Shown in pieces: positions 19,729-48,759 of a stretch of 64,000 nucleotides of DNA; the stretch's first letter is position 1, and every line of letters starts with the position of its first letter. The DNA lies in assembly GCA_902788085.1 (NCBI GenBank), contig CADAJB010000001.1, positions 5,241 to 69,240 on the forward strand. The letters are read 5' to 3'. The notes beneath the pieces were generated by a model. It had not been told where the DNA came from. It saw only the letters and a list, made by a program, of their open reading frames with translations, and did no database searches. The stretch comes from an uncultured Eubacteriales bacterium (lineage in GTDB: Bacteria > Bacillota > Clostridia > Christensenellales > UBA1242). The position numbers and the translations under genes are program-made.

Positions 19729-20238
19729 ATGCAAAATTATAAAGGACAAGTAAGGCGGGTAGATGAACTTGGGCGAGTAGTTATACCAAAAGAAATACGC
19801 TTTGCCTTAAACATACATTCGGGCAGTTTGTTAGAGTTTTTTTGCGACCAGCAAAATAGCACCATAAGTTTAGAAAAATACGAGCCCGTTAAACAAATAA
19901 CTAACTATGCAATAAACTGTATGCAGGCTTTAAAAGATTTTTTAGATGTTGGTTTTTTATTGTGTGATAATTCTAGTGTTGTTTGGGCAATAAATTTACC
20001 CAAAAGCGAGTATGTTGGGCAAAAATTAAACACTATTGCATTAAACGAAAGTTATAAATTAAATAACTTAAATAATGTAAATATTTTACAGCAAAAAAGT
20101 GTTTTGAAAAATGTTGTTTTGCCTATAAAAAATAATGGCGATGTGTGGGGAAGTATTGTTTTAATAGGTGATGTAACTACCGAAGTTTTAAGCAGTGCAA
20201 AAACAGTGTGTAAAATAATTTCTAATTATATAATATAA
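19729..20238 (+). CDS. spoVT: stage V sporulation protein T (AbrB-type N-terminal domain plus GAF-like C-terminal domain)
   Basis: N-terminus GQVRRVDELGRVVIPKEIR...L is a SpoVT/AbrB swapped-hairpin domain. 169 aa. Confidence 0.8.
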   Translation: MQNYKGQVRRVDELGRVVIPKEIRFALNIHSGSLLEFFCDQQNSTISLEKYEPVKQITNYAINCMQALKDFLDVGFLLCDNSSVVWAINLPKSEYVGQKLNTIALNESYKLNNLNNVNILQQKSVLKNVVLPIKNNGDVWGSIVLIGDVTTEVLSSAKTVCKIISNYII

Positions 20239-24739: not shown

Positions 24740-25044
24740 TAAAAATCCTCCATTTTTTGATTTACAAAAAGTATATCTAATAAAAAATAAAAACACAACT
24801 AAAAAAGTGTTTTTTGGCATTATTTTTATAATTTTATTTTTTATTTATTTAAATAAAAATAAATTGTAATTATTTGTTATTTTTAGTGCTATTTTGTTTG
24901 CTTTTTATTGCATTATTTAATAAAATTAAATAGTATTAATTTTTAGGTAAGATAGTGTCAAAAATTATACGCAATATATACAAAAATTAAATAAAAACTT
25001 ACAAAAAGTAACAAACTAAATTGTATAAAAAATAGGGGTAAAAA

Positions 25045-28000
25045 ATGAAAAACAAAATAGCAATTTTTAGTTTAATGTTGGTTGCCTTTTTGGGTGGCAT
25101 TTTTGGCTTTGCCGGTTGTGGCGATAAATACCAAAATTTGTCTATTGAGTTAAAGGGCGCAAACATTGTTGAAGAAGAAGATGGCAGTAAGTATATAGAC
25201 ATAAGTTTTGATGAATCTGACCCTACAAAAAATGTTATAGAATTTAGCGCAACAATTTTGGGTTATACCGAAGATATGGTTAAAACTATGAAGTTGTCTG
25301 TTCCGCAAGATAAGGCGGTTATAAATTCTACAAGGACTAGGGGCGACACTACAACATTTAATGTTACAATTTTAACCTCGGGTATTATTCCGGTTGTTGT
25401 TTATTCTAACGAAACACACAAGGTAAGTGCTAGCCTAAAAATTAGGTCGCTTTTGCCTACAAGTGCAATTGAAGACAATAATGCCACGCTTACATTTATG
25501 CGACCAACCATACAAGAAAATAGCAAAAAATATTTACTAAACGACGAACAAATTGTAAAGTTTACCCCAACATATTCTAGCGTTCGTGCGGTTAAATACG
25601 AAATACAAAACATTCAAGGCGTTAGCATTGAAGAAGAAAATGGTTTAAGTTATATTGTGGTAGATAACAATGCGGTTTTGGGTATGTTGCCAATAACTGT
25701 TACTTCGTTGCGTGCAGTTAGCGGAAGCAGTGAATATGCCGAAGATTTAACCGATGAACAAAAAGAAAAACTATCTACCACGGTTTATGCATTAATTTAT
25801 GATTCTAGTTGGGGGTTAGATGTATATAACACTCAGTTTGAAGACGGAATACAAACACTAAAACTTTCTTCTAAGGCTGGGCAATACACAGTTAACCAAA
25901 GACTTGCTAGTTTTGGTCAAACAAAAACTGCGGTAGATTTATCTAGTGTTGGTAACTTGCATGCGGTGTATTTTGCAAATACAAACAATAAAAATATTTG
26001 CTATGTAGAAGAAAATGATGGTGCTTTTGATATATATTCGGCAAGCAGGGGTAGTGCAAGTTTAACTTTTGGTGTAGATTTATATTATGTACCAAACTAT
26101 ACAGGCAATGGCAATGTTGCAAACCTAAACGATTATAAAAAAGTTCTTTCTTACGAAAAGCAAATTGATGTTGAAGTAATAGACACCCCAACATACATTC
26201 AACTTACAAACGCTAATGGCATAACATCTAACACAAACGCAACAATTAGTATTTACGAACAACAAAAAGATGGCGACGGTGAAGATGCTCAAATTGTGTA
26301 CGGAAAGGATGCTTATATTAGTGTAAATGTTACGCCATTAACTTTACCAGATGCATATAAAAGGTTTACCTTAGACCTAAGGGCAAGAAACGATAATGGT
26401 GATATAGACGAAGGCTATACCAACAGGGCAAAAGAAATTGTAACTTTATATTATTATAGCCAAAATAATGTTGTTGTGCCAATCAACTTAAACGATGATA
26501 TAACAGACATTATATCAAGTGGTGTAAATGGTACAAAAATTTATATTGCCTTTAATGCAACTTCGGCAGATATAATAACAAGTGTAGAGTTGGTTGTAAA
26601 AACTTTACAAATAACAGATGTAGATGACACTTTAACAAGTATTGTTACTTGCAATTTTAAAGATAGTGTAATAAGCATAGATGATATAAACACCAATGGC
26701 TTTAGCATTATTCACGAAGTAGAAGATGTTAAATATGCATACATTTCTATGGACGACAGTCAAAACGGGGTTGCTTGCGCGGTTAAATATACCACTAAAA
26801 CTTATGACAGTAGTTCTAGTGTTACACCCGAGGCAAACCAATCGTTTATTGTAAACACTTCTAACAATAGTGAAGAAGTTGTGCGCATAATAACACAAGA
26901 CAATTCAAACAAGTTTGTTTTATACCCACGCGCGCAAGGTAGTGTAGAAGTTAGTGTTACTTCCGAAAATAATATAACTTACAAATTTATTGTAAGAGTT
27001 ATAAAAAGCGCACAAAGTTTTAGCATAAATTATGAACAATCTACTGGAAAAACTGGTGAAGTTACACGCTATAACGGAGAGATTGCAGAAGATGACGAAA
27101 TATCTCAGCCAAGCAGTATATTAAACTATGGTTTAAAAACAATGTATTTGCAAGCAGATTCTAGAATTAGGTTAAACGCAGTTGCAAATCCAACAGGTGC
27201 AGATATTATTGCCACAAATCAACCATATACTATTTATAAAATACAAGGTGAATACACCAGTGGTATAAGCATAACCCAAGATAACACTAGTGGTGAAAGT
27301 GTTATATACCTAAACGCTAAAAAAGCAGGCGAGTATAATGTTGTGTGTGTTGCAAGCACTTTTGTAAAAGACGAAAATGGTATTTATAACATAAGCAGTA
27401 TAAACCGTGGCTTTAAAGTTTATGTGTTTAACAAAATTGAAGGTGTTGTTTGGACTATAAACAACGAAGAGTTTTATGTTCCCGAAAACGACAATACATT
27501 AGTTTACGAAATATATGATAACGACTCGGTTGCTTTTGATAAGCAAAACACTTTCCCTTATAATGATGCCGCATATTATTTAAACCAAATGGGTTTACAA
27601 AGTTTTATGAGTGCGGGTCAGCCACACTTAAATGCCTCGGCTTTAAGTTCTAAAGAATTATATATTAGTTTTTACGCAAGACCTTATGGTACTAATAGGC
27701 AAGTGCCAAACTATATAAACAGCGAAACAAGCACATCAAGCCAAATTCCTACCGATAGCACACAGGCAGTAAGTTATCATTATAGTATAGACTATGCAAG
27801 TGGAATTCCTAACAAACTTGCTAGCATTATAAATGTTGGTACCGATTCGCAAGAGTACACCGAAAACGATAGTACACAACTTTATTCGCCATATAATATT
27901 TGGATGGGCTTTACATCTGTTTTAGATGATTCTGCAAAAGAATATGTATATGAATATAAAATTAGTGTAATTATAACACAAGCCAATACTATACAAAAAA

Positions 28001-31000
28001 CATCAGTATTTACTTTGCGTATTATTCAGCCAGTAAGAAGTGAATATGTAGATACTGTTGACGAAATTAATTTAGAGTATGGTGGTTTAAACACGCCAAG
28101 CACAGCATTAAACATTAGTGTTCAACCAAATAATGTTTATGACGCAAGGTGGGTATATAGTTTGGGCGGACAAGGTTTAAGTGTTTCGCTTATAAACGAA
28201 GTTAAGGGTATAAAAGACGGTATAGTTAATTCGGTTTTAGATAACGGCATTATTAGGTTCGACCCAAATACTATGCAGTTATCTATTAGCCCGGATTATA
28301 CTGGGAGTAATGCAGATACTTCTATAACATTCTACGCGCTAGATTCTATTGCTCTTCTTCGTGATGTTTCTACCGATGTTTATACTTTTGGCACAGCAGG
28401 TGGGCAACCTGTATTTGTGGCTACTGATGGTACTAACATACTAGGTTATACGGCAAAACTACCTATATTTAAAACTATTAATGTACATATAAATAGTGGT
28501 GAATCACCAAACAGCCCATTTGTTATAAAAACTGCCAACGAATTTAAAAACTTTATAACAAACATCTATAACGGCAACACATACGAAGGGCAATACATAA
28601 AAGTAGAAAACGATATATACGGCATTAATATACCAGCAGGTTTAAACACAAATGGGTGGTTTAGTGGTGTATTGTTTGCAGATAATAAAACAACTTTGCA
28701 CTTTTTAAGTGCACCATTAAATTTGTTTGGTAAAATAAAAAATGGTAGCATTAATAATATTGATTTTGTGTTTAGCAACGCTTTTGAAAGTGTTTTAACA
28801 GAATGTCCTGATACTCAAGGAAATAAAGTTGGTATTTTGGCTTCGATTATAGTTAATGATTATTTAACACCAACACAAAAAGCCGAATGCTATTATTTAA
28901 ACACACAAACAAATGCTTACGAAGAAGTGCAACCGTTAAATTATAGCACAATTATTTATAACCACATCTTTAATAATGTATCTGTATCTTTAAATAACAA
29001 TGTTATAATAAACACACAAAATAATGCTCACTTAAAATTTGGTGTTATAGCAGGAAATGCGGTTGGTGCCGAATTTAATAATTGCGAAGTAAACTTGCAA
29101 AGTGATGTTGCTTATAATGAATTATATGGTGTTATTGTATCTGCTGAAATTGGCTCATCTCTTAACTTTGTATCTGGCTTTATTGGTGTAGGAAATAAAT
29201 TATTAGATGACGAAAACAATGCTTGCGAAGTAAGTAATGTTATAACTAATTGTGTAGTGCGTATGTATGGCAATAACGCTATTATATCTAACTGGACCGC
29301 GGCAGGCTTTATAGCATCGGCGTGGGGTGGTGTAGATTTAAGTTATAGTTATGTGCTTGCCTACGATAAAACACAACCAAATATACAAGCAAAGATGATT
29401 GCGGGATTGGTTGTTTTACAAAACGGTTCAGCTGAATGTCTAATAAAAGTTAACCATTGTTTTGTAAGTGCTAATATTTATAGCACGGTTGGTGCAAATA
29501 GTATTGCTGCGTTAATTCAATATAACTATTCAAGCCAAAGCGGAACACCTGACATAGTTGAAAATAATGTTTCTTACAATTTTGTTAATGTAGTAACATC
29601 TAACACCGATATAGCTTTAATATTCTTTCAAAATGACATAGGTCCAGCGTATATTAACAAAGATAGTTTATTAAATAAATCTTATGCTAATATAGTAGAA
29701 AATGGCGTGGCTAATACTACAACTTACGGCTTAGATTTTGATAACTTAGATAGCAACTTTACAACCCTTTACCCAAGTTATAACAATGGTTTGCCATTAT
29801 TGACTAGGGTAGATGGCTCGTTGTTATACGACAACATTTTGCCAGAAATTAACTGCAACATTTTAGCCGAAACAGTTTTGGCGTATGATAGTTTAAATCA
29901 ACCAATTTTAGATAGCCAAAGAATTATATTAGATGCAAACACCACATACGCATTAAAAGACTTAATAGATACCACAAACTTTAACGCATACCCAGTTGCT
30001 CTTGTAAGAAATTATAGTAGTTATGATGTAACAATTACACAAAACACTTACTTTAATGTAGGCAATACAACTATAAAATTTAACAAAGCAGGCGAGTATT
30101 TATTAACCCTTGTTTCGCAACAAGATAGTTCGTTAAAGCAAGTATTAAAATTTTTGGTAAAATCGGATACTTCTAATGTAAAACTTTATACCGAAAGTAA
30201 CGGAGAGGATGTCGAGTTGTCTAGCGGTAAAGAAGTGCTTGTTTACAAAAACGAAACATACAGCGTAAATGTATTAGATATGCCAAATGATGTTAGCGAA
30301 ATTGCATACATAAGATATATAACAGACAACAAAGATGCCATAGTATTTAGCACCACTCAGCCAATAGAATGGGTAGAAAACGGAAGCGAATATTATGTAG
30401 ATATTCCTATGAGCGTAGCACACACTATAAAAATGATAGATAACGCTACAATTAGTTATAAATATGTATTAAAATATGTTTACAATTATACCGAAGAAGT
30501 TGCGGGCGAAACAATAAACAAAACCGCAAACTATCAAGATATTGTTTACAACAAAACCGACGAGCACGGGGTTGATGTATTTACATTTAATGTTAAAATT
30601 GTGCCTAATGTTAGTTTAAACATTAATAGTGCCGACTTATATACAAGTGACGAATTATTATTTGTTGTTACTGCCGACATTATAGACGCACCAAAATTTA
30701 ACTATAATGGCGATTATATAAACAACCTATCTGCGCCAATAACCAATCAAGTTGTGGTAGATGGTAAAACATTATATACATACACTTACTACATAACAGT
30801 GAAAGACTTATACAAACAAATAACACAAAATGTTAGTCAAGTTATAGATGTTATATACAACGACGAAGTTTTATCTAGTTTAAACATAACCATAATGCCA
30901 ACACCTATTGCAAGTATTCTTCCTTTGTTCTACTACAACGGGCAAGATGCATTAATTGATGATACTTCACGCAGTTCGCACACAATCATTCCGGGTGGCG

Positions 31001-34000
31001 AGGGCATATTAAAACTAGAAGTTACACCAAGTTATGCTAATTACGATTATATTGAAGTTTATTCTACCGAATTGCAAAACACTACAATATTCTTTACACA
31101 ATATTATAAAAATGGCAATAGTTATGTAGAAATTCCTAATGGTTCTAGTTATAGTGCAGACGGAAAGTTGTTATTGCAAAAACTAACCGGCATAAAAGCA
31201 CAAGGCAAATATTTTGATGGAACTTATTATATAAGCACATATCTTCCAACAAGTGTAAAAGAAGATGTAAACTGCTTCTACATTAAAATAACACCAAAAT
31301 TAAACAATGGGCAAGAAGTTATAGATGCATTTAGTACTGTTGACTATGCGGTATATCCGGGCTTTGTTTCGACTGTTGAATTAAAAGATGTAAAAACAGC
31401 CAAAACTGATGACAATAAATATTTAATAGTAGCCAACCAAACATTTGCATTTAACTTAAATTTAAGTTTGCGCAATGCTAGGGTAAACATAACAACATCT
31501 AATAGTGCAGTTACAATTTATAGTGATGCAGAATGCACTAGCGAAATTAGTGCCGACTATGTAAACAACAAAACCTTATCACAAGAAGTTACACTATATG
31601 CAAAAGTGGGTAGTGGTGTAACAAAAGATGAAGAAATAAGGTTAAATATTCAAGTTTATCAAGATGGTCAACTTGTAGGCAACGATGTTTATACATTTAT
31701 TGTTGCAAACGAGATAATAACAGACTATCACATAGTTTGGAATAAAGACGAAACAACAGGCATAGTAACAATGTCTGATGAGTTAACTATTGGCACAAAC
31801 TCGTACACACAACTAATTATGTATTATAATAATGGTGTAAGTGCCGACTATATTGCTTGGAATAAAATCAACTTTGTAACAAACAACTTTAATGCATGGT
31901 TGTTTGAAACTAAAAACCTAGAAGCGCAAGCATATACTTACTTTACTGCCGACAAATACGGCGAAGAAAACAAAAACTGGCGTTTAATTGGTAATGATGT
32001 GGTTTCGGGCTTAACCTTAACTGTAAAAGCATATATTTACTATAACACAGCAGGCGAGTTGCAAATAAGTACAGAATTGCCAAACGACCCACATGAATAT
32101 AAATATGTTCAAACAATTAACTACAACATAACCTTAAATGTGGTGGTAGATAGCACCGAAGAAAAACCTTTGCACATAGATAGTGTAGAAGACTTTAAAA
32201 AGTTAAATGGCAAAACTGGTCAATACTATATGCTAACTAACGATTTAGTGTTAGATAACTGGGAGCCATTCGAATTAAATGTGGCAAACCTAGACTTTAA
32301 CAACCACAAAGTTGTATTGCGCAGTCTTAACTTAACATCACAAAAAACTGCAACTTCAACAAACATTAGTGCTGGTTTGTTTACAAGCATTGGTGTTAAT
32401 ACAGTTGTTAAAAACCTAATTTTAGATGTATCTATGCTTGTTTATGTAGATGCATTAGATAAATCTGTTGTAGATTTTGGTTTTGTTGCTGGTATAAACC
32501 AAGGTATTATTTATAATGTAGATGTAGTTGCATTTAAAGATATAAAAGTAAATACTTCGCAAGGTGAAAAAGCAATAGACTGGATAGACTTGTTTAACTA
32601 CAAACAAAATAACGACCAAACAGATAGTTTAGGTTTAGAAAGTGCAACCCTTGACGATAGTGCACTAGGTAGTACACAAGATACATTTAATTATTTAGAT
32701 GACCGTTTAGTTTCGGCTAACACAAAATCTATATTTAATCAATTAAAATATAATGACGAAGAAAATAAACAGCAATCGCCTATTAGTGTGTTTATATTAA
32801 CAGGTGGCTATGCCACAACACTAAATAGTTTAACAACACACATTGGTGGAATTGCAGGTACAAACAACGGCTTTATTACAAACGCTAGGGTGGGCAGAAG
32901 TGGCAACATTGTTGTTAATGGCAGTGTGGTAACACTTGATGAAGTTTTAGGCAACGAAGCAACATCATTTAACCTATATGCTGGTGGAAATGTGGCAGGG
33001 CTTGTTGGGTTAAACACTAATGTAATTTCTAGCAGTTATTTTGCAAACGGTTATGTTATAAACTCTACAAACGCAAGTGCAAGCAGCACAAAAACTGCAG
33101 GTTTGGTTGCCGAACAAAACGCAATGGGTCGTGTATATGGTTGTTATGTTCAGGGTGGCATTAATACCCAAAACAACGACACAATGGCCACAAACGGCGG
33201 TGTTAAATCGCAAGGCACGGTTGCAGGGCTTGTTCATACAAACGATGGTGTAATAGAAAATAGTTTAAGCAACATTCCACTTTACAGTAGTATGGGTGTA
33301 GGTGGGTTAGTTTACACAAATAGCAAAAATGGTAAAATAAACACAAGCATTTCGTTAAGTAAAGTTCAATCTACAAACTCGCTTGTTAATGGCTTATTTG
33401 TAGGTGTAGATACAAAACAAGACTTGCAAAACTTTGGTAGTGTAACAAACAGTTATTATTTAATTCAAGATACCATTATTCAACACCCAGCCGAACAGGC
33501 AATAGGCCTAGATATTAATCAATTAGGCAACGCATCTAAATATCTATATGGCTTCTCTTTATATGATAAAGAACAACTAGAACCAGACCTAGATATAGAT
33601 AGTTTTGTATGGCAAATTTACCCTAAAACACAGATGGTGGGTGAGGGCACAGATACACACGAAGTAACAAGTGCAACCTTTAACCTTATTGCAGCCAACA
33701 AAATAACTTATGGCTTGCGTGATGAAAATGCAAACTACTTATTAAAAGAAGAAGATTGCGGTTGGGGTGATAAAAACAACCCAATAGTTCTTGCAAACGC
33801 CGAAGACTTTAACAGATATTTTGGCGAAGACACTATATATTATAGCGATAAATACTTCCGCATTGTTGCAGATATAGACTTTAACGAATTTAACAACTTC
33901 CCAATATATTCATACAAAAAAGTACTTGAAAATACTCACTTGCAAGGTAACGGTTTAGATGTTAAAAACCTAAGCTTTAACACCGAGGGCGGAGATAATT

Positions 34001-37000
34001 CAAGTTTATCAATAGGTTTGTTTAGTGCTGTTAAAAATTCGGTTGTTTCGGGGTTGAATATAAAACTTCTTAATGGCATTTTAGCGGGTGACTTTAAACA
34101 AGTTGGTGCTTTGACTGGCGAAATAACAGAAAGTAGTATATCTAATATAAACATCAGCGGTACAGAAAATAGCAGTATTATAGGTTATAATATGTCGGGT
34201 GGTCTTGCTGGTGTAATAAAAAATAGTAGTTTAAGCAATATTGTTTCTGGTGTGTCGGTATCAAGTTCGTACATAGCAGCATCTAGTGGCGAAAATAAAT
34301 ACAGCATTTCTACATACTCGGCAGAAAACACTGCCACAAACAAACAATGCAGTTATGCGGGCGGAATTGCTGGTATTATAGACGAAGAAAGCACAGCCGA
34401 ATTTTTGGTTGTAGATAACGCTAAAATTACAATCAGCGCCGAACATTCTGGTGGTTTAGTTGGTTATTTAGGTGCAAAAAGTACTTTAACAAACAGCAAG
34501 TTTGTTTTAGCCGACCCAAGCAAAGAAAACGCCCAACTAATAACCAGTACAAACTTTGTTGCTGGTGGGTTAGTTGCTGAAAACTTAGGTAAAATTAAAT
34601 ATAGTTATGTAGATTATAACCAAGATGTTCAAAAAGCGTTAGACACCCAAGCATTAAGTTCTACCGATGTAAACAACACTTTGGGCAACCTAGATATATT
34701 TGCAAGTTCTAATAGCATAGCAATTGGTGGTTTGGTAGGTTTAAACTTTGGTGGTAGCATTTTAGATAGTTATACTCGTGCCGAAGTTGTATCTAAAAAA
34801 GCGCACATTGCTGGTGGTTTAATTGGTATTGCAACTAATACATTAATAACAAGTGTAGATACTAGTCAAACCATAAGTGGTTTGCTAGCTTATTCAGACA
34901 ATAGCGAAAGCGGTTTAATAAAATATGCTGTTTCTGATATAGACCGTGTTTATACTACATCATTTGTATATGCAAAACAAGCAGTTGGTGGATTAATTGG
35001 TTACTTAAATGGTCAAGTTTATACTAATACCGAAACAACAATAGTTGCAGTAAACAAAATGCCACAAACAACTGCATACAACTATAATAATGTTGCATAC
35101 AAAGGTAACACAATAGGTTATTATCGTACAACATCTAAAAAAGATATATTTGTTGTAAAAATTCAAGGTCAAGAAGAAGCCGCATATTCTAACAGCAAAT
35201 ATGGTATTTTTGCTGTAAATAAAGGCGGAACAAATAAAGAATTAGCCTTTGAATACGAAATAGGCAATTTAGCGCCATCTAACCAGTTATATACTAACTT
35301 CTTAGAAGGGTATTCGGTATCTTACCTAGATACAATACAAAAAGATACAATTATATTTAACGGTTTGGCAATGCAAGAAGAAAATGTTTGGGCAGTAGAT
35401 ACCACAAAAACCGAAAGCATAATGCCAACTTTGCGTACCAACAATGTTGTATATACGGTAGATATAAAAACAAAAGAAGATTGGGTAAAACTACAACAGG
35501 CTTATGGTGCAGTTTCTACATACAATTTGATAGATAATTTAACCATAGATGACGAAAACAACATAATTTATAACACATTCGAAACATTTAATGCTAAAAA
35601 TGTTGTATTGCAAGGCAACGAACACACGGTTTATGTAAATGTTACACAAAACTTTACACCATTATTTGGTGATGCCGAAGGTTTGACATTAAATAATGTT
35701 AAGTTTGTATTTAATGTAACTCAAAATCCAACAAACGCAATAAAATCGTTGTTATGTAATAGTGCAATTAATTGTTCGTTTAACAATGTAGAAATAGAAA
35801 TTAAAAACACCCTAACCTTGCTAGCAGGCACAACAACATTTGGTTGTTTTGTAGGCCAAGTTAAAGATAAAGTTTCTATATACAACTGCAAGGTAAGTGG
35901 CACAATTAATTTTAATGGTGCTTATGCAAACGAAATTCGTTTTGGTGGGTTGATTGGTGATTTATCTTATGCAACCACCCAGCAAAACATATCTAGCATA
36001 AACTCTAACAATTATGGCAACCTTACACTAAATTTAAGCGCAACATTTAATGGCACAACATATATAGGTGGATTAGTTGGTTATATAAGCGGACAACATA
36101 CTGTACGCGGTGTAATAAATAATACATCTAATATGGTGCTAAACATAAAACAAAACTCTACAATAACCGCTAATGCAGACTTATTTATGGGTGGTATTGC
36201 GGGGTATGTAGATAGTGCAAGTTTTAGTAATATATCAGTTTCAAACAAAGGCACATACACAATAACTGGTAGTGCAAATGCAAACATAGGTGGTGCTTTT
36301 GGTAAACTATCAGGCATAGCAAAAGCCAACAACATTGTGGTAAAAAACGGTGGCGAATATAACCTAACTATGCAAGTAGTTACAAACTTTGGTGGTGTTG
36401 CTGGTTTGTTTGATGCCCAAACTAATGCCGAAATTGGATTTAGTACAGTTGAAGCAGACTTTATAATAACAAACACAAATACAGCAAATGTGGGTGTATT
36501 TGTTGGTAAGTTAAATTCAACAGCCGATAAAACCAATGTTATTAATGCGGTTATTGCAATGGGCGACTTAACCCTAACACCTCAGGCAAACCTAAATGCT
36601 GGTGGTTTGGTTGGTATTATAGATAGCACCAAAAAGGCGTATATTAATAATAGTGCGGTTTATAGCACAATTAATATACAAAATGGTGCAAATAATATTG
36701 ATATAAACATAGGTGGTTTTGCGGGTGTAAGACAAAGTGGCACGCTTGAAATTAATAATAGTGTTGCTTATGGTGCTATTTATAGTAAATACACAGGCAC
36801 AAGCGATGACAATAATGTGTTTAACCTTGCTGGTGCTGTTGGTGCTATTCAAGGCGAAATGCTAAAACTATGTATTATAGGTACAGCAATTATTTATAAA
36901 AACAACAACCTTATAAATGTTGATGCTATCACAAACGATATTGCAACAAATAGTGTAAGGTTAACAAAAGTATATTATGTACCTAATATGGTAGGTCAGT

Positions 37001-39153
37001 TTAGTATTTACGAAAGTGCTATAATGCTAAGTTTAAACGACTTAACAAATAGCGATAAGTGGTTGCAAGAAAATTCTGCACGCACAAACCCTACTAGATT
37101 TGCTATACCATCGATTACAAGTCAAGAAACACAAACTTTATATAGTTATTTTGCTGTATCAAATGTTATTGTAAATAGCATTACAGACAACGCAAAAACA
37201 AGGTTTATAGAAATTAATAATCTAGAATTAATTGGCAACAATACCGAAGAAGGTGCTATTGTTAGATTAGCAAGCACAACATATAACACAACAAATAGCA
37301 TAACCTTAAACGATAATATTGCAAGATTAGTTGCCGATAACGCCGAAGTAACAACCAGCACAAACTTGTTTACACAAATTCCACAAGAAATGTTAATTAG
37401 TGGTATTAAGTTAAAACTTAATAATAATAAATTGTCTAAAACAATAAATAACGCGTTTGGTTTGTTGGCAAACGAAAATAGTGGTTTAGTGTTTGATTGT
37501 GGACTTGGCAGTATTATAGACGAAGACATACAAGATGACGCACACTATGTATTTACCGAACAAAAATTTGAAGAGAATAGTAGCAGTTTTGTAAACTACT
37601 ATGATGCACCAAACTGGACTGTTTTAGAGTTAGATATAGGCGCTGGTGCAAGTGTAGGTGGTTTGGTTGGTAACAACCTAGGGCAAGTAAATGGCTGTTA
37701 TGCTTATGCCGACTTTGTGTTTACTAATACTGCAAATAATACAAGTTTTGGTGGGTTAGTAGGTACAAACTCTATTTTAACAAATAGTTACATTATAGGT
37801 AGGCAAGTATATACCATAAACACATCTAACTTAGGTAAAGTATTTAACGCAAGCGGAAATGCAGTTAAAGATTGTGTATCTTATGTTGTATATTATGTAG
37901 AAAATGGTGATGTTGAAGTTAAAAACACAATTTTAGAAAGCGGAAACACACTATCTGCTATTTGGAAAACTATTAGTGCATATAACTATGGTATTAGTAT
38001 GTTTACAAGATATTATAACAACGAAGATATAAAATTAGCATACTACACAGGTGACGGACTTGCAAACCCTTACGAAATTATAGATTATATGCAACTATAT
38101 AGTTATTTAATAGACAACCCAGATGTAGATGTTGCTTTAGTTAAAAATGTTTTTGTAACAAACAACTCGTGTATTGCTAGGCAAACTAAACAACCAACTA
38201 TTGGCGCGTTGTTTAATGGTAATGGCAAAAACTTGTATGTAAAATCTTATACACAAGACATACGAACAAACGAAGTAGTTTATACAATATTTAATGATGT
38301 GTTAAATACCGCAGATGTATATAACCTAAACTTAATAATAGGCGAACAAACAATACAAACCCCAGAACCTAACAAAAAGTTGTATTTTGGTGGCTTTGCC
38401 CTAGATTGTAAAGGTTCGGTTAAAAATGTTTATGCATACAGCATACGCTCTTCAACAGCAACAGGAAGCGAAAACAAAATAACCCTAAAAGCAACAGCAT
38501 CAAGCGAAAACTATGCAGGTGGATTATTTGCAAAATTTAGCGCAAATATGCTTCAAAAATGCATAATTAAAGTTAACTTTGTTTTGGCAAATGATAGTGA
38601 AGAAATAAATATGGGTGCTGCTATTGGAATGATTAATAGTAAGTCGTTAAGTATTTACAACTGCAAAGTAGATACATTTATTGGTTATCTTGCGGGTGGT
38701 TTTACAAAACCAACAAGTGTTTCGGGCAGTATATTAAACATTTATGATTGTTATACCACATACAAGGTGTTAACAGGTGGCACATTAAACGAAACTAAAA
38801 CACAATACAACGGTATAACCCTTTACCCAAGTGGTGAAAATGAAAGAGCATACTTTACATTTGTAAACGATTATAACGATAAATCAACAAGTAAGAAAAA
38901 CTCGGTAAATGTATTTAATTCATACTATTTAATTGAAGACATCAATAATATAGTATATGCTTGTGCTTACAACTCGACGGGGCAAGCAGTAAATGGTGCA
39001 CCAGCATTTGCTGTAAAAGATTTAAGTGATTTAACACAATATGACGAATTGATGGACGCATATCTAAATAGTGGCAACTATATAAAAGTATTAGGTGGAT
39101 ACCCAATATTAAAATTAGATAGCACGCAACAAGAGAATACATCGGGTGAATAA
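25045..39153 (+). CDS. giant surface lipoprotein (4702 aa) with Ig-like N-terminal region and five GLUG-motif beta-helix modules
   Basis: Uninterrupted 14,109-nt ORF. Signal peptide plus lipobox GFAGC. More than 25 GGL(V/I)G.N.G.I..(S/C)Y-type motifs. Confidence 0.85.
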   Translation: MKNKIAIFSLMLVAFLGGIFGFAGCGDKYQNLSIELKGANIVEEEDGSKYIDISFDESDPTKNVIEFSATILGYTEDMVKTMKLSVPQDKAVINSTRTRGDTTTFNVTILTSGIIPVVVYSNETHKVSASLKIRSLLPTSAIEDNNATLTFMRPTIQENSKKYLLNDEQIVKFTPTYSSVRAVKYEIQNIQGVSIEEENGLSYIVVDNNAVLGMLPITVTSLRAVSGSSEYAEDLTDEQKEKLSTTVYALIYDSSWGLDVYNTQFEDGIQTLKLSSKAGQYTVNQRLASFGQTKTAVDLSSVGNLHAVYFANTNNKNICYVEENDGAFDIYSASRGSASLTFGVDLYYVPNYTGNGNVANLNDYKKVLSYEKQIDVEVIDTPTYIQLTNANGITSNTNATISIYEQQKDGDGEDAQIVYGKDAYISVNVTPLTLPDAYKRFTLDLRARNDNGDIDEGYTNRAKEIVTLYYYSQNNVVVPINLNDDITDIISSGVNGTKIYIAFNATSADIITSVELVVKTLQITDVDDTLTSIVTCNFKDSVISIDDINTNGFSIIHEVEDVKYAYISMDDSQNGVACAVKYTTKTYDSSSSVTPEANQSFIVNTSNNSEEVVRIITQDNSNKFVLYPRAQGSVEVSVTSENNITYKFIVRVIKSAQSFSINYEQSTGKTGEVTRYNGEIAEDDEISQPSSILNYGLKTMYLQADSRIRLNAVANPTGADIIATNQPYTIYKIQGEYTSGISITQDNTSGESVIYLNAKKAGEYNVVCVASTFVKDENGIYNISSINRGFKVYVFNKIEGVVWTINNEEFYVPENDNTLVYEIYDNDSVAFDKQNTFPYNDAAYYLNQMGLQSFMSAGQPHLNASALSSKELYISFYARPYGTNRQVPNYINSETSTSSQIPTDSTQAVSYHYSIDYASGIPNKLASIINVGTDSQEYTENDSTQLYSPYNIWMGFTSVLDDSAKEYVYEYKISVIITQANTIQKTSVFTLRIIQPVRSEYVDTVDEINLEYGGLNTPSTALNISVQPNNVYDARWVYSLGGQGLSVSLINEVKGIKDGIVNSVLDNGIIRFDPNTMQLSISPDYTGSNADTSITFYALDSIALLRDVSTDVYTFGTAGGQPVFVATDGTNILGYTAKLPIFKTINVHINSGESPNSPFVIKTANEFKNFITNIYNGNTYEGQYIKVENDIYGINIPAGLNTNGWFSGVLFADNKTTLHFLSAPLNLFGKIKNGSINNIDFVFSNAFESVLTECPDTQGNKVGILASIIVNDYLTPTQKAECYYLNTQTNAYEEVQPLNYSTIIYNHIFNNVSVSLNNNVIINTQNNAHLKFGVIAGNAVGAEFNNCEVNLQSDVAYNELYGVIVSAEIGSSLNFVSGFIGVGNKLLDDENNACEVSNVITNCVVRMYGNNAIISNWTAAGFIASAWGGVDLSYSYVLAYDKTQPNIQAKMIAGLVVLQNGSAECLIKVNHCFVSANIYSTVGANSIAALIQYNYSSQSGTPDIVENNVSYNFVNVVTSNTDIALIFFQNDIGPAYINKDSLLNKSYANIVENGVANTTTYGLDFDNLDSNFTTLYPSYNNGLPLLTRVDGSLLYDNILPEINCNILAETVLAYDSLNQPILDSQRIILDANTTYALKDLIDTTNFNAYPVALVRNYSSYDVTITQNTYFNVGNTTIKFNKAGEYLLTLVSQQDSSLKQVLKFLVKSDTSNVKLYTESNGEDVELSSGKEVLVYKNETYSVNVLDMPNDVSEIAYIRYITDNKDAIVFSTTQPIEWVENGSEYYVDIPMSVAHTIKMIDNATISYKYVLKYVYNYTEEVAGETINKTANYQDIVYNKTDEHGVDVFTFNVKIVPNVSLNINSADLYTSDELLFVVTADIIDAPKFNYNGDYINNLSAPITNQVVVDGKTLYTYTYYITVKDLYKQITQNVSQVIDVIYNDEVLSSLNITIMPTPIASILPLFYYNGQDALIDDTSRSSHTIIPGGEGILKLEVTPSYANYDYIEVYSTELQNTTIFFTQYYKNGNSYVEIPNGSSYSADGKLLLQKLTGIKAQGKYFDGTYYISTYLPTSVKEDVNCFYIKITPKLNNGQEVIDAFSTVDYAVYPGFVSTVELKDVKTAKTDDNKYLIVANQTFAFNLNLSLRNARVNITTSNSAVTIYSDAECTSEISADYVNNKTLSQEVTLYAKVGSGVTKDEEIRLNIQVYQDGQLVGNDVYTFIVANEIITDYHIVWNKDETTGIVTMSDELTIGTNSYTQLIMYYNNGVSADYIAWNKINFVTNNFNAWLFETKNLEAQAYTYFTADKYGEENKNWRLIGNDVVSGLTLTVKAYIYYNTAGELQISTELPNDPHEYKYVQTINYNITLNVVVDSTEEKPLHIDSVEDFKKLNGKTGQYYMLTNDLVLDNWEPFELNVANLDFNNHKVVLRSLNLTSQKTATSTNISAGLFTSIGVNTVVKNLILDVSMLVYVDALDKSVVDFGFVAGINQGIIYNVDVVAFKDIKVNTSQGEKAIDWIDLFNYKQNNDQTDSLGLESATLDDSALGSTQDTFNYLDDRLVSANTKSIFNQLKYNDEENKQQSPISVFILTGGYATTLNSLTTHIGGIAGTNNGFITNARVGRSGNIVVNGSVVTLDEVLGNEATSFNLYAGGNVAGLVGLNTNVISSSYFANGYVINSTNASASSTKTAGLVAEQNAMGRVYGCYVQGGINTQNNDTMATNGGVKSQGTVAGLVHTNDGVIENSLSNIPLYSSMGVGGLVYTNSKNGKINTSISLSKVQSTNSLVNGLFVGVDTKQDLQNFGSVTNSYYLIQDTIIQHPAEQAIGLDINQLGNASKYLYGFSLYDKEQLEPDLDIDSFVWQIYPKTQMVGEGTDTHEVTSATFNLIAANKITYGLRDENANYLLKEEDCGWGDKNNPIVLANAEDFNRYFGEDTIYYSDKYFRIVADIDFNEFNNFPIYSYKKVLENTHLQGNGLDVKNLSFNTEGGDNSSLSIGLFSAVKNSVVSGLNIKLLNGILAGDFKQVGALTGEITESSISNINISGTENSSIIGYNMSGGLAGVIKNSSLSNIVSGVSVSSSYIAASSGENKYSISTYSAENTATNKQCSYAGGIAGIIDEESTAEFLVVDNAKITISAEHSGGLVGYLGAKSTLTNSKFVLADPSKENAQLITSTNFVAGGLVAENLGKIKYSYVDYNQDVQKALDTQALSSTDVNNTLGNLDIFASSNSIAIGGLVGLNFGGSILDSYTRAEVVSKKAHIAGGLIGIATNTLITSVDTSQTISGLLAYSDNSESGLIKYAVSDIDRVYTTSFVYAKQAVGGLIGYLNGQVYTNTETTIVAVNKMPQTTAYNYNNVAYKGNTIGYYRTTSKKDIFVVKIQGQEEAAYSNSKYGIFAVNKGGTNKELAFEYEIGNLAPSNQLYTNFLEGYSVSYLDTIQKDTIIFNGLAMQEENVWAVDTTKTESIMPTLRTNNVVYTVDIKTKEDWVKLQQAYGAVSTYNLIDNLTIDDENNIIYNTFETFNAKNVVLQGNEHTVYVNVTQNFTPLFGDAEGLTLNNVKFVFNVTQNPTNAIKSLLCNSAINCSFNNVEIEIKNTLTLLAGTTTFGCFVGQVKDKVSIYNCKVSGTINFNGAYANEIRFGGLIGDLSYATTQQNISSINSNNYGNLTLNLSATFNGTTYIGGLVGYISGQHTVRGVINNTSNMVLNIKQNSTITANADLFMGGIAGYVDSASFSNISVSNKGTYTITGSANANIGGAFGKLSGIAKANNIVVKNGGEYNLTMQVVTNFGGVAGLFDAQTNAEIGFSTVEADFIITNTNTANVGVFVGKLNSTADKTNVINAVIAMGDLTLTPQANLNAGGLVGIIDSTKKAYINNSAVYSTINIQNGANNIDINIGGFAGVRQSGTLEINNSVAYGAIYSKYTGTSDDNNVFNLAGAVGAIQGEMLKLCIIGTAIIYKNNNLINVDAITNDIATNSVRLTKVYYVPNMVGQFSIYESAIMLSLNDLTNSDKWLQENSARTNPTRFAIPSITSQETQTLYSYFAVSNVIVNSITDNAKTRFIEINNLELIGNNTEEGAIVRLASTTYNTTNSITLNDNIARLVADNAEVTTSTNLFTQIPQEMLISGIKLKLNNNKLSKTINNAFGLLANENSGLVFDCGLGSIIDEDIQDDAHYVFTEQKFEENSSSFVNYYDAPNWTVLELDIGAGASVGGLVGNNLGQVNGCYAYADFVFTNTANNTSFGGLVGTNSILTNSYIIGRQVYTINTSNLGKVFNASGNAVKDCVSYVVYYVENGDVEVKNTILESGNTLSAIWKTISAYNYGISMFTRYYNNEDIKLAYYTGDGLANPYEIIDYMQLYSYLIDNPDVDVALVKNVFVTNNSCIARQTKQPTIGALFNGNGKNLYVKSYTQDIRTNEVVYTIFNDVLNTADVYNLNLIIGEQTIQTPEPNKKLYFGGFALDCKGSVKNVYAYSIRSSTATGSENKITLKATASSENYAGGLFAKFSANMLQKCIIKVNFVLANDSEEINMGAAIGMINSKSLSIYNCKVDTFIGYLAGGFTKPTSVSGSILNIYDCYTTYKVLTGGTLNETKTQYNGITLYPSGENERAYFTFVNDYNDKSTSKKNSVNVFNSYYLIEDINNIVYACAYNSTGQAVNGAPAFAVKDLSDLTQYDELMDAYLNSGNYIKVLGGYPILKLDSTQQENTSGE

Positions 39154-39160
39154 AAAACAA

Positions 39161-39190
39161 AAAAATCTCAACAATTAGTTGGGATTTTTT
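39161..39190. terminator. bidirectional intrinsic terminator
   Basis: AAATCTCAAC-AATTA-GTTGGGATTT flanked by an A-run and a T-run, between the giant gene and lepB. Confidence 0.7.
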
Positions 39191-39193
39191 GTT

Positions 39194-39928
39194 TTAAAAG
39201 TTTAAGTTAAATTGTAAAAGCGTGGCAATAATATCGTGCCATATTGTGTTGTCATAAATTATTTTATCTACAACGCCCAGCATGCGTATTTGGTCTAGTG
39301 GGCCAACATAGCGCGAGTCTAAACTATTGTTTCGGTTGTCACCCATAAAAAAGTAATAGCCTTGTGGTATGGTTATATAACCATCACTATCGCGTGGGCA
39401 TTTTATATACCAGTTAGTTTGTTTGTTAAATGTTTCTACAACATATTTATCGGTATCGGGGTTTATATAATCTTCTTCTAATTTTACACCATTGCGCCAA
39501 ACTTCGTTTTTGTTGGTTTCTTCGTTGTGTATAATTTTTAATTTATCACCACCAACAGCAATAATGCGCTTTACTATTAGTTTTGTGTTTTGTGCATCAA
39601 ATGTAACCAAACCCTTTGTGTTTATAATAACAATGTCTTTATAACTAGGTTTTGTAAACTTGTTTACAAGCACTATATCTTTTTGCCCCGAATACTGTCC
39701 CGTTTCGGTAGAGTTTAGGTTTGGGCACATAGATGCACCTGCAATAATTTTTGCAAAATGCGAATTTAGGTATATATAGCAGTTTAATATAACAGCCAAT
39801 GCTAAAAGTAGGGCAACAACTTTTGCCCATAGGGTATATCTTTTATATTCGGGTTTAAAAATACTGCCTTTGGGGTCTTTTATTTTTAACACTTTATACC
39901 GCCTTTTATATAGTGCATAGTACTGCAT
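39194..39928 (-). CDS. lepB: signal peptidase I (bacterial P-type, S26A)
   Basis: GASMCPNL (Ser box), KRIIAVGGDKL (Lys box), GDNRNNSLDSRY. Alternative start GTG 39889 with AAAGGCGG RBS. Confidence 0.88.
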   Translation of the reverse strand: MQYYALYKRRYKVLKIKDPKGSIFKPEYKRYTLWAKVVALLLALAVILNCYIYLNSHFAKIIAGASMCPNLNSTETGQYSGQKDIVLVNKFTKPSYKDIVIINTKGLVTFDAQNTKLIVKRIIAVGGDKLKIIHNEETNKNEVWRNGVKLEEDYINPDTDKYVVETFNKQTNWYIKCPRDSDGYITIPQGYYFFMGDNRNNSLDSRYVGPLDQIRMLGVVDKIIYDNTIWHDIIATLLQFNLNF

Positions 39929-40683: not shown

Positions 40684-40706
40684 AATAACAAATGCGGGAG
40701 GATATT

Positions 40707-43700
40707 ATGTCTAAAAAGAAAAAACAAAAAGGTAAACAAAATAAGTGGTCTAGGGCAAAAAAAGCGTGGGCTGGTGCTAAAAAGGTTGGCGGAGCTGCTA
40801 AAAAAGTAGGTGGTGCTGTTAAAAAAGAAGCACTAGATTTAGCAATTGAGCCAATAGGCACTATTTATAGACACGCAACAAAAGATATACCAAATGCTGT
40901 AAATGCAGGTGCAAATGTGGCAGAAAAAGCTGGCTCAAAGGGTATAGATGCAGTAGAAGAGTTTGCACTAACAAGGTTTTGGGCAGAAACTAAGGGTGAT
41001 AAAGCAAACGGCAAACTTTTTGAATTTGTTTTAGATAATCAGTCTTTAAGCGGAAGGTCTAAAAGTAGACTTAAAAAAGCAATACAAAATGGCGCAAAAG
41101 TTGTATTTTTATCTAGTAAAGATGCCGATGTCGCTAAAAAAGACATTGAAGCATTAGGCGTTGCTTTGGGTGTGGAAGGTTTAACAAACAGCGACCCAAG
41201 ATATTTTCTTGCGTGTGACAACGGCGCAACAATTTTAAGTAGTGTATCGGGCGACTTTAAAGACGCTAAGGGCATAGACCTAATGGCAGTAGAAAACCAA
41301 AACAATGGTTTGGCAAAGTTTGATAGTGACGGCTTGCCTGTTGTAAAAACAGCCACAGCACCTGCTGCGTGGCGTAGTGGTGCAGGTATAATAGAAAGCC
41401 TAGAAAGTTTTAAAACTCAAAATTCGAATGTTGACTATAAAGCAGAAGCAAAAACAATAACAATAAAAGTAACAGATAACCGCGCTTTGCCTGATGCATT
41501 GGGGCTTGCTAATAATATTATAAAAACCTTGCCACTAAGCCCTTCCGAGTTAAGTAAATATGGTATAGGTTTAACACTTGACGGAAATATTCAAATTAGG
41601 CCACTAGACCAAACTTCTGTAAACGCCGAATTTACAGTTCGTAAAATGGCGGGCATTAAAGGGCAAAATGTTCGTCGCTCGGTAAGTTGTGCTGCACAAG
41701 TTAGTCAAAATATGCCACTAGATACATTTATGTCTAGATTTGTAAAAAACAGAACAACAGGCGAAGTTTATACCACAGAAGAAGCCAAACAAAGTGGTTT
41801 GTTGCACAACCTTGCTGCTAGTATGTTTGTGCCACAAATTGATATGCTTGCATCTAACTCGGCAACAAATGACGGTTCGTGGCTTGCAAGAACAACATTA
41901 AAAAACCGCAAAGATATGCAACTTTTAAACGATATGTATGCCGACTATGTATATATGGTTGCAAGGCGAAGCACAAGTGTGCAAACGGCCGCTTCGAATA
42001 TAGGTTTGGTTGTTACTAATGCAATGATGACAATGTATGATATGCCAGCGCTTGCAAAAAATAAAAATGCAATAAGTTATTCAAAATTTTTAAAAGCACA
42101 AGAAACAGGTGATACTGCTACAATTAGCGCTTTTCAAAGTCAGGCAAGTGATTATTGTGGGCCAACGGCAAGTAATGTAGTGCAGTTTTTAATGTCTGTA
42201 CCAGCAGAATATAAGGTATATCCAACACACAAAGGTTTTGTTGGCAGGTTTTTCTATGGTATTAGCGGAAAGTCTAGAATGCCAGACGAAATAGATAAAC
42301 AAGCAACTAAAAAAGCAGGCAAAGAAAGTGATGTTGTAAAGGTAAAAAGGTTAGATACTTATTTAAATCAACAGGCCAGCGTTGTTCAAGAATTGGTGGC
42401 ATATTCTACCGAGTTAACTAAACTAGAAAACACTAAATTGCGCGCACAAGAAGGAAACGATTTTACCGAGTTCTTAGAAAAAGTTCAAAAAGATATACAA
42501 AACGGTGCAACACAAGAGCAAGTGTTTGAAAAGGTTACCGAGTATATAAACAGCCGAGATTTACAGGCAAAGGCAGCAGCATCTAATAATAATCAAGCAA
42601 ATGCAAATGCTAATTCTAACAACAATAATAACAATAGCAATAACAACAACAATCAACAAAACGCAAACCAAGCATATATACAACAAGAAGTTTTGCGTCA
42701 AAATATTAGGGCAAGTAGGGCGCTTATTGCTAACATAGCAGATAGTGTTAGCCCCGAAGATTTAGCATCTAACCCAACATATATATATCTAAACAATGTG
42801 TTATCTTGGGAACAAGAACAACTTACAGAGTTGCAAAATACACAAGGTGTAGTAGATAAAGCCCCAGATGGCTCTAAAATTAATAAAAAAGAGTTGCAAG
42901 ATGGTTTGTATTATAGTGCTGCAAACACTAAGGTTATAATTTGCAACGACCGTGCACAAAAAATTGCTGCAAGTCAAGGAAAATCTGATGCTGTGTTGCT
43001 AGATACTTTTAATGTACCCGAAACCATAAAAAATAGCAGTGCATATCAACAAGCACAGGCTTATACTAAAAAGGGTATAGAAGATGTAGATTTAACCAAC
43101 ATCACCGACCCAAAAGTTCATAACTCGTTTGACGATTTAAACAATCAGTTAACCAGTTTTATAGATAGTGATAAAACATCTAAAAAAGGCTTTAAACTAG
43201 ACGAAAATTATAGTATGGTTGCCACAGTTGTAACACACAACTTAGAAGCAAACAACTTAGATATGCTAGAAACAGTAAAGAAGGCTGTTCACCCTAAAAA
43301 AGAGCAAAAAGAAGAAGAAACAGACAAAGAAGATAACAAAAAAGAAGAAAAGAACGACAAAGAAGAAGAGAACAACAAAGACAATGAAGAAGAAGATGTT
43401 GCCGAATATCAACGCGGTGCTTTGTTTAGAAAATTATGTATAAACCCTAATGTAGATAACTATCGTCGCAGTCGTAATTTTATGGCAGCCACTGTGGCTA
43501 ATGCAAGGCTATATATGGATAAAAATGGTTTAGCAAATAGCACAGAATACGAAATCTTTAATAAAATGGCTTCAAAATGGATGTCAACAGTGGGGGCGGA
43601 AAATCTTCCTACAATACGCGGGGGGAAAGATAGAGATAAAGAGGTAGAGCAGTTAAATATTGCGTGGGCTGAATTAGAAAAACAATATGCCTCTAACCCC

Positions 43701-46655: not shown

Positions 46656-46664
46656 GGGGGAATT

Positions 46665-48053: not shown

Positions 48054-48064
48054 TGGAGGAAAAA

Positions 48065-48607: not shown

Positions 48608-48685
48608 CAAAAATTTACACATTTAAAAAACTGTATATCAAACTAAAAATTTTGAAAAATTTTGTATAAATATGCCTAAAATCGT

Positions 48686-48713
48686 TTTGTAAAAAAATTT
48701 TGTTCTGCTATAA
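48686..48713 (+). promoter_or_regulatory. sigma-A-type promoter for the 48860 gene
   Basis: TTGTAA, 16 nt, TGc-TATAAT. Confidence 0.5.
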
Positions 48714-48717
48714 TAAA

Positions 48718-48759
48718 GGTATGTGATTTGCATAACAACACATACTTTTATTTGTTTTT
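48718..48759 (+). promoter_or_regulatory. 5'-proximal hairpin plus U-tract in the leader (attenuator or 5' stabiliser)
   Basis: GTATGTG...CACATAC stem with inner TTG/CAA pairs, then TTTTATTTGTTTTTG. About 100 nt upstream of the start codon. Confidence 0.35.

Follow-up and report, generated by a model that had tools for sequence, protein, structure and literature searches.

A giant predicted lipoprotein with an Ig-like array and six GLUG-type beta-helix modules in an uncultured Clostridia lineage

Introduction

The choice of what an uncultured bacterium attaches to often depends on surface proteins of very large size, and a single giant gene found in the 64-kb stretch of DNA analysed here (the window) raises the question of which kind of protein it encodes and what that protein could do for the organism. 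The open reading frame (ORF) in question, of 14 kb on the forward strand, covers 22% of the window, and purifying selection keeps it intact, which means that the organism invests heavily in it. It had previously been read from the letters of the DNA, without database searches (the sequence-only reading), as the gene of a lipoprotein made of Ig-like and GLUG-like units.

In this work we describe its product as an unusually big yet recognisable kind of bacterial surface protein, which reveals no new mechanism or system. According to its sequence the protein is probably anchored to the membrane by an N-terminal lipid and contains six discrete modules of the GLUG beta-helix family, and we favour, although with moderate confidence only, the idea that it works as an adhesin-like, wall-spanning binding fibre on the cell surface. 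The locus shows six GLUG beta-helices in tandem behind a predicted lipid anchor and yields a domain map of a family so far unnamed in databases. The ligand of the protein, if found, could account for the way in which this Clostridia lineage, represented solely by metagenome-assembled genomes (MAGs), attaches to its niche.

Results

The giant gene is intact and under purifying selection

The gene is one open frame of 4,702 codons plus a stop codon, uninterrupted as it had been reported, and a cluster at 90% identity contains seven full-length copies of its product from independent ENA, NCBI and Logan assemblies. All seven are intact, 98.7-99.9% identical and either 4,698 or 4,702 amino acids (aa) long, the two lengths differing by a single in-frame indel of 4 aa at aa 3371-3374. 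In comparison with one of these loci (L003, 10001-24109) we counted 64.5 synonymous and 22.5 non-synonymous differences, that is, a ratio of non-synonymous to synonymous rates (dN/dS) of 0.093. Furthermore, the gene is free of tandem repeats and of long direct repeats in its DNA, so repeat collapse during assembly is unlikely, and the self-similarity of the protein is limited to three weak self-BLAST pairs. The gene is real, intact and under purifying selection. Frameshifts, stops or collapsed repeats, and a lipobox missing from orthologues, were the sequence findings that would have refuted the sequence-only reading, and it withstands each of them, since the seven assemblies have no frameshifts, the gene has no collapsible repeats and the orthologues keep the lipobox. 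An assembly artefact or a decaying pseudogene, which could be argued from a distant relative that is split over three reading frames on another contig, was rejected for the window locus: the independent intact copies, the low dN/dS, the lack of collapsible repeats and the existence of full-length orthologues leave this explanation with almost no credibility.

The split relative lies at 1-6572 of locus L001 (ENA contig XIEF21-1_SAMN15829944 scaffold_42780), is colinear with aa 2504-4642 of the giant protein at 39-57% identity, and its broken frame may be either an assembly error or a decaying copy. The contig name XIEF21-1 presumably points to a ruminant gut MAG study. In the case of the indel, it consists of the residues VKIQ (window 35155-35166), separates the 4,702- from the 4,698-aa alleles and falls in a part of the module M3 model (see below) that has low confidence.

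The family is tiny and fast-evolving. When aa 1-1190 were used as the query of a full HMMER search, only seven of 1.84 billion representative proteins were matched, namely the giant protein itself, two full-length relatives (4,567 and 4,614 aa) and four fragments; a cluster-mate of the 4,614-aa relative, of 4,627 aa, has a complete N-terminus. Members were found only in ENA, Logan and NCBI assemblies, and no relative appeared in two contig scans with one genome per species nor in one scan of JGI metagenome contigs. The sequence of the giant protein itself is present in a collection of 15 billion proteins, and an exact look-up among gene positions gave no match. About 2,000 aa appear to be family-specific, with no homologues detectable by sequence outside three species-level clusters. 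No paralogue of the protein is present within the window.

The orthologues of two other species, with ~40% identity, are colinear with the giant protein over ~4,300 aligned residues and their gene order agrees with that of the window, with a divergent OYE-type/pyridine-nucleotide oxidoreductase before the giant gene and, after it, a convergent S26 signal peptidase, an inorganic pyrophosphatase and a large lysine-rich orphan. Between the window species and the species of one of these loci (L002, on Logan contig SRR17704075_6909) the giant protein keeps 38-42% identity, whereas its neighbours keep far more (bPH-domain protein 90%, pyrophosphatase 88%, OYE-type oxidoreductase 80%). Conservation is uneven along the protein: it peaks in the module M2, with 55-63% identity to the orthologues against ~40% overall and many Asp, Glu, His, Lys and Arg residues invariant across them, and it is lowest in aa 1200-1400 and in M6 (16-30%). 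The L002 contig carries another very large gene (32008-33704 and beyond, with a product called at 2,601 aa), which starts 8 kb downstream of the L002 giant gene and has no counterpart at the equivalent position of the window.

The differences between strains are mosaic. With respect to L003, aa 1-1154 show 38 synonymous and 5 non-synonymous codon differences, aa 1155-2905 show 3 and 0, and M3-M6 (aa 2906-4702) show 23 and 17, and 0.62% of the nucleotides of the giant gene differ versus 0.18% in the 10 kb upstream (~3.4-fold). This distribution suggests recombination tracts within the gene and a weaker constraint at its distal end.

Six modules of the GLUG beta-helix family

The strict turn GG[LIVFA][VIAL][GA] was observed 16 times in the protein, versus ~0.3 expected from its composition, always between aa 2601 and 4236, and in a scan with a looser motif 25 of the 26 matches were placed inside six modules, M1 to M6, that sum to 2,714 aa or 58% of the protein (Table 1). 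The earlier idea that GLUG-like turns dominate everything beyond the first ~1150 aa is therefore right about the presence of such beta-helices, which Pfam, fold and profile-profile comparisons uphold, but it overstates their extent, as aa 1596-2370 contain none.

Pfam and NCBIfam scans of the whole protein gave no match, and GLUG was absent from the hmmscan output even at E <=1. When the protein was scanned in nine segments, aa 2921-3490 matched the Pfam GLUG family (PF07581) over 3 stretches with E 5.8e-11 and a score of 42.5 bits (cut-off 20.5), and GLUG was found below threshold in M4 (E 0.33) and M5 (E 0.038); no domain other than GLUG was detected in any of the nine segments. Thus, the search for GLUG that had been proposed for this locus succeeds above threshold in M3, in the segmented scan only, and five of the six modules fall below the detection of Pfam itself. 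Since the whole-protein hmmscan missed a domain that a 570-aa segment scores at 42.5 bits, it is possible that other giant proteins also need piecewise scanning.

A profile built from M3 and its relatives retrieved 780 proteins of Bacteroidales, Planctomycetota, Firmicutes and archaea, nearly all of them annotated as GLUG and many with the N-terminal region of M26 IgA1 proteases as well. The consensus of this family consists of an N-cap (P-Y-x-I ... D-I-D-L ... F-x-G-x-F-D-G-N-G), a series of GGLVG coils and a C-cap (W ... Y-P-x-L). Each module was then evaluated by hhalign, in which sub-alignments of the orthologues were compared to a 100-row GLUG profile from which the giant protein and its close relatives had been removed. 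All six modules were recovered, M5 being the weakest and marginal, and five control segments elsewhere in the protein gave 0.1-0.4%. N-cap, GGLVG-type turns and C-cap (W...YP.L) are shared by the six modules, and the last of them ends, at the C-terminus of the protein, in the C-cap motif GGYPILKLD. On this sequence evidence, the six discrete modules belong to the GLUG beta-helix family.

Of the six modules, M3 was the one whose fold was modelled. The AlphaFold2 model of aa 2906-3500 (105-row alignment) is a run of short strands with a predicted local distance difference test score (pLDDT) of 70.8 and a predicted template-modelling score of 0.79. Foldseek placed at the top the B. ovatus 'putative IgA1 protease' 3n6z (E 2.6e-5), then the pneumococcal and Gemella IgA1 proteases 7uvl, 6xja, 6xjb and 7uvk, and, in lower ranks, a fucoidan lyase, an L. 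reuteri SRRP, pectate lyases and tailspikes; a search of a viral structure library with the same model gave the same picture. PDB sequence searches with the giant protein and with the orthologue profile found no match. The GLUG-family profile, searched against PDB, matched 3n6z at E 6e-33 and also the IgA1-protease residues that correspond to NTD2, a beta-helix that acts as gating domain of these enzymes (PMC9637739). The model indicates that M3 would be a right-handed parallel beta-helix like those of 3n6z and NTD2.

These similarities could suggest that the giant protein is itself an enzyme like the M26 IgA1 proteases, whose NTD2 has the same kind of beta-helix (PMC9637739), or the delivery arm of a polymorphic toxin, as its C-terminal end is the most variable part, in the way seen in polymorphic toxins. 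However, neither HExxH nor HxxEH occurs anywhere in the protein and no segment has a Pfam match to Peptidase_M26 at E <=10, so the protease was rejected. The toxin or contact-dependent inhibition effector was rejected too, because the last 363 aa form a GLUG module closed by the family C-cap and the downstream gene is the convergent, syntenic S26 signal peptidase and not an immunity gene. We consider this pair of explanations very improbable.

A predicted lipid anchor and no other attachment signal

The N-terminus of the protein, MKNKIAIFSLMLVAFLGGIFGFAG followed by Cys25, satisfies the PROSITE lipobox rule PS51257 in its regular-expression form. It begins with MKNK, continues with a hydrophobic stretch and ends in FAG before Cys25, a position within the range of 15-35 that the rule allows. 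The six homologues whose N-terminus is intact all keep this cysteine, embedded in L-x-G-C-[GA]-D-K-Y; besides the giant protein, the other five (P0125, P0140, P0127, P0129 and P0130) also match the PS51257-type rule and four of them have a canonical L-[VSTA]-G-C lipobox. The signal peptide and lipobox recognised in the earlier work are therefore in agreement with PS51257 and conserved in the family, as the check in orthologues that had been proposed confirms. All these data suggest that the giant protein is probably anchored to the membrane by a lipid at its N-terminus.

The signal peptide is the sole hydrophobic segment of the protein. In line with what had been claimed before, motif, Pfam and NCBIfam scans revealed no sorting signal, no SLH domain and no catalytic domain. 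More specifically, a motif and hydrophobicity scan of the protein found no LPXTG-like motif ([LS]Px[TA][GANS]) and no hydrophobic tail, and a sortase-anchored adhesin, which would have such a signal plus tail at its C-terminus, was rejected; the Pfam and NCBIfam scans showed no SLH, CWB2 or other cell-wall-binding domain. No lgt or lsp gene is present within the window. A role of the neighbouring S26 signal peptidase as a dedicated processing enzyme is unsupported, because the lipobox indicates cleavage by signal peptidase II and, in genomes this close to each other, synteny carries little weight.

An Ig-like array precedes the beta-helices

In the AlphaFold2 model of aa 26-1190 the chain is all-beta, with pLDDT 70-85 up to ~aa 815 and <50 beyond that point. 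Foldseek matched this model to arrays of Ig domains with E 1e-20 to 1e-9, including NUP210, the S-layer proteins SbsB, Sap, EA1 and SbsC, titin, cadherins and an RTX adhesin. From the strand pattern we estimate ~7 Ig-like domains. The segmented scan found no Pfam Ig family in aa 26-~815, and the domains have no mutual similarity detectable by self-BLAST or hhalign; across the non-helix regions of the protein, no pair of windows reached an hhalign probability of >=70%. The earlier assignment of the first ~1150 aa to Ig-like units is thus borne out for aa 26-~815, where model and Ig-array matches agree, but not for aa 816-1154, where the pLDDT drops below 50. This latter region has no Pfam or PDB match and was negative in the GLUG profile comparison, and the middle region (aa 1596-2370) has zero turn-motif matches and no Pfam match. 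We would guess that the middle region is a beta-rich spacer.

The Ig-like array allows another explanation, in which the protein would be a structural part of the envelope or of the spore surface, like an S-layer-like lattice, a wall-spanning ruler, or a protein of the exosporium or forespore membrane. The match of the N-terminal model to the Ig-like arrays of SbsB, Sap, EA1 and SbsC is compatible with this, as is the spore-forming organism with a SpoVT-like regulator 5 kb upstream in conserved synteny. However, such arrays are generic, as the same search matches titin and cadherins, there is no SLH, CWB2 or other wall-binding domain, the candidate promoter (see below) is sigma-A-like and not sporulation-specific, and lattice proteins are usually far smaller. 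An S-layer protein in the strict sense, which the giant protein resembles in the generic Ig-like array fold only, was rejected, and a structural role in general seems unlikely to us.

Table 1. Features of the giant gene and its product, with positions in the 64-kb window.
Feature	Positions	Strand	Evidence
Candidate sigma-A-type promoter, TTGCTT-17 nt-TAAAAT	24898..24926	+	Alignment with L002
Ribosome-binding site AGGGG	25034..25038	+	6 nt 5' of ATG, direct sequence reading
Giant ORF, 4,702 aa + stop	25045..39153	+	Intact in seven assemblies; dN/dS 0.093 vs L003
Signal peptide with lipobox, predicted lipidated Cys25 (aa 1-25)	25045..25119	+	PS51257-type pattern
Array of ~7 Ig-like beta-sandwich domains (aa 26-~815)	25120..27489	+	AlphaFold2, Foldseek
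Family-specific region (aa 816-1154)	27490..28506	+	pLDDT <50
M1 (aa 1155-1595), degenerate turns	28507..29829	+	hhalign 97.2%, E 3e-11; N-cap matched by family hidden Markov model
Middle region (aa 1596-2370), without GLUG turns	29830..32154	+	GLUG profile controls 0.1%
M2 (aa 2371-2890)	32155..33714	+	hhalign 98.0%, E 2e-13
M3 (aa 2906-3470)	33760..35454	+	hhalign 99.6%; Pfam PF07581; AlphaFold2; Foldseek
M4 (aa 3492-4030)	35518..37134	+	hhalign 96.1%, E 4e-9; six GG-turns
M5 (aa 4050-4335), weakest, marginal	37192..38049	+	hhalign 86.0%, E 5e-6; two GGLVG turns
M6 (aa 4340-4702), distal end	38062..39150	+	hhalign 97.2%, E 4e-11
Bidirectional intrinsic terminator, common to the convergent S26 signal-peptidase gene	39154..39195	.	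Hairpin, A-run on one side, T-run on the other

Transcription unit

The ATG at 25045 is the earliest possible start, since the stop-to-stop frame opens at 25042, and the place of its ribosome-binding site is occupied by AGGAG in L002. The G+C content of the gene (32-35%) is the same as that of its flanks. Both hexamers of the candidate sigma-A-type promoter are kept between the window and L002, the locus of a ~40%-identity orthologue, and the spacer and surroundings vary; the -35 box is weak (3 of 6 positions), and a promoter function for this element is put forward as a candidate assignment on the basis of sequence.

The sequence-only reading had placed strong bidirectional terminators on both sides of the gene. 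Of the two, the hairpin downstream is truly a strong bidirectional terminator, with -16.3 kcal/mol and z -7.0 for the + strand and with -12.5 kcal/mol and z -4.9 for the - strand, but the one upstream is weak (-5 to -6 kcal/mol, z about -1) and was rejected as a terminator, as it lies inside a divergent promoter region. In fact, the gene on this side runs divergently on the other strand and probably starts at 24739, which gives the form of 752 aa called in both L002 and L003, so the upstream region is a promoter region. The giant gene is nonetheless monocistronic, as had been stated, although the reason is the orientation of its neighbours, divergent upstream and, in the case of the S26 signal-peptidase gene, convergent downstream, and not a pair of flanking terminators.

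Discussion

The combination of a predicted lipid anchor, an Ig-like array and six GLUG-type modules is in our opinion best explained, with a probability somewhat above even, by an adhesin-like binding fibre that is lipid-anchored at its N-terminus and spans the wall at the cell surface. According to this proposal, the protein would be exported by Sec, Cys25 would be lipid-modified and the signal peptide cut off by signal peptidase II, and the N-terminus would thereby stay attached to the cytoplasmic membrane, on the outer side. The Ig-like array next to the membrane and the spacer regions would then form a stalk through and beyond the peptidoglycan, and the six beta-helix modules would be the distal binding part, with a host, particle or cell-surface ligand that is probably a glycan or a glycoprotein. 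Lipidation, surface exposure, extended shape and binding function are all inferred. An Ig domain spans ~4 nm and a beta-helix rises ~0.48 nm per coil, so we estimate that the extended molecule would be of the order of 100 nm. The fast divergence of the distal tip and the recombination between strains would fit what is seen in exposed adhesins, for instance Giant1-5 of Apilactobacillus kunkeei.

Several of our data weigh against this proposal. The lipobox is a sequence prediction, the mean pLDDT is 61.8 in the model of aa 26-1190, whose alignment had six rows, and ~1,100 aa (816-1154 and 1596-2370) have no assigned fold. Moreover, M2, the most conserved part, has many invariant charged residues that would also fit an active site, and beta-helices are common scaffolds of enzymes, lyases and tailspike depolymerases being among the structural matches. 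These latter points would be accounted for by a membrane-tethered multi-enzyme in which one or more of the beta-helix modules, M2 being the likeliest, would attack glycans of dietary, host or microbial origin as a polysaccharide lyase, hydrolase or depolymerase, with the Ig-like domains as spacers. Pectate, alginate and fucoidan lyases, GH28 and GH87 enzymes and phage tailspike depolymerases are indeed built on the right-handed beta-helix and are all present in the weaker structural matches, and the invariant residues of M2 include many that are acidic or basic. However, the best matches both in sequence and in structure are non-catalytic GLUG beta-helices (3n6z and NTD2 of IgA1 protease), no segment matches a lyase, hydrolase or generic Beta_helix family of Pfam or NCBIfam at E <=10, and the structural matches to enzymes have E >=0.015 and a template-modelling score <=0.33. 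We regard a multi-enzyme as an improbable alternative to the binding fibre.

The closest relationship of the giant protein in both fold and profile is with GLUG proteins such as the M26 enzymes (6xja, 7uvl, 7uvk) and BACOVA_03286 (3n6z). It differs from the M26 IgA1 proteases in having no M26 catalytic domain, no HExxH and no LPXTG, and whereas their structures have one such beta-helix (NTD2; PMC9637739), the giant protein has six in tandem, highly diverged. Regarding the anchor, 17 of the 119 GLUG-family matches listed carry a lipobox; the earlier remark that a lipid-anchored protein of this size is unusual thus applies to the size and the six-module array and not to the lipobox. As a lipobox on a GLUG protein is not new, the novelty lies in the scale, the array of six modules and the ~2,000 aa of family-specific sequence.

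Among other very large surface proteins of Firmicutes, Giant1-5 of A. kunkeei are extracellular beta-solenoid proteins of 3,000-8,000 aa that show intragenic recombination between strains (PMC12863079). Together with the serine-rich-repeat adhesins whose binding region is a beta-solenoid, such as the SRRP of L. reuteri (5nxk), which is among the fold matches of M3, they share with the giant protein a beta-solenoid plus a long stalk, a fast divergence and intragenic recombination between strains. However, they have a Sec/SPI signal, a single distal beta-solenoid at the N-terminus and a C-terminal wall attachment (SH3b-like or LPXTG), and the polarity of the giant protein is the reverse, since its predicted lipid anchor is N-terminal and its six beta-helices are placed on the C-terminal side; it also lacks serine-rich or near-identical repeats, and no sequence homology to them was detected. 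In the same way, the prediction for its first ~800 aa is a series of beta-sandwiches like those of RTX adhesins (6xi1) and S-layer Ig arrays (SbsB, Sap, EA1), from which it differs by the absence of SLH, RTX and type I secretion signals. Finally, PMC11166332 describes the chlamydial Pmp proteins and autotransporters, with GGA(I/L/V) and FxxN repeats, as surface adhesins with a long parallel beta-helix that has a short glycine-rich tetrapeptide per coil. These belong to diderms and have a C-terminal beta-barrel, and we draw an analogy with them and claim no homology.

A bolder version of the fibre can also be considered, in which the giant protein would be a lineage-restricted surface organelle of a Gram-positive: a single-polypeptide, lipid-anchored, wall-spanning fibre of ~100 nm with a catalytic or receptor site in M2, its strongly conserved inner module, and with fast-evolving distal modules that confer variable specificity. 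If this were true, it would be a combined enzyme and adhesin machine with a polarity opposite to that of all characterised giant Firmicute adhesins, and aa 816-1154 and aa 1596-2370, which are specific to the family and have no homologues that could be detected, might hold folds not seen before. We think this version quite improbable.

The organism and other genes of the window

The window contains an operon of the GerA/GerB/GerC type for a germinant receptor (51948-55712, - strand) and genes for a CwlD-like amidase (59383-60087, +), a SleB-like protein with peptidoglycan-binding repeats (3775-4896, +) and a SpoVT-like regulator (19729-20238, +), as well as a RicT gene. On these grounds the organism is an endospore-forming Firmicute, in accordance with the monoderm spore-former that had been deduced earlier. 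Among named relatives, its alanyl-tRNA synthetase comes closest to those of 'Clostridia bacterium' MAGs, with 69-83% identity, and one fragment of the giant-protein family, 42% identical to M3, is labelled Christensenellales. With its 602 aa, this synthetase (55887-57695, +) is short, as typical bacterial ones have ~870 aa, and it comprises the catalytic domain and the second additional domain. The 120 relatives listed, from MAGs of Clostridia and Firmicutes, also have ~592-629 aa, so the short form looks like a trait of the lineage.

Other large proteins of the window have no family assignment. One of 1,262 aa (14182-17970, +) has an N-terminal membrane anchor and no Pfam match even when scanned in halves; it is syntenic in L002 and only 41% identical there, versus 80-90% for housekeeping neighbours, and may be a second fast-evolving surface protein of the lineage. 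The orphan at 40692-44780 (+), of 1,362 aa, is rich in lysine, glutamate and asparagine, has an N-terminal run of asparagines and KKxGGA repeats and gave no Pfam match; its syntenic counterpart in L002 has 1,539 aa and 21-26% identity. A cluster of tRNA genes at 5475-5873 comprises Arg-CCT (+), Glu-TTC (-) and Met-CAT (-), and no other Rfam family reaches its gathering score in the window. At 45798-49663 (+) there is a weak second S26/S24-like signal-peptidase homologue of 285 aa (22.7 bits, cut-off 22.9), followed on the same strand by three ORFs (462, 184 and 267 aa) that match no family, an arrangement that recalls operons of the sipW-tasA type, the resemblance being one of layout only.

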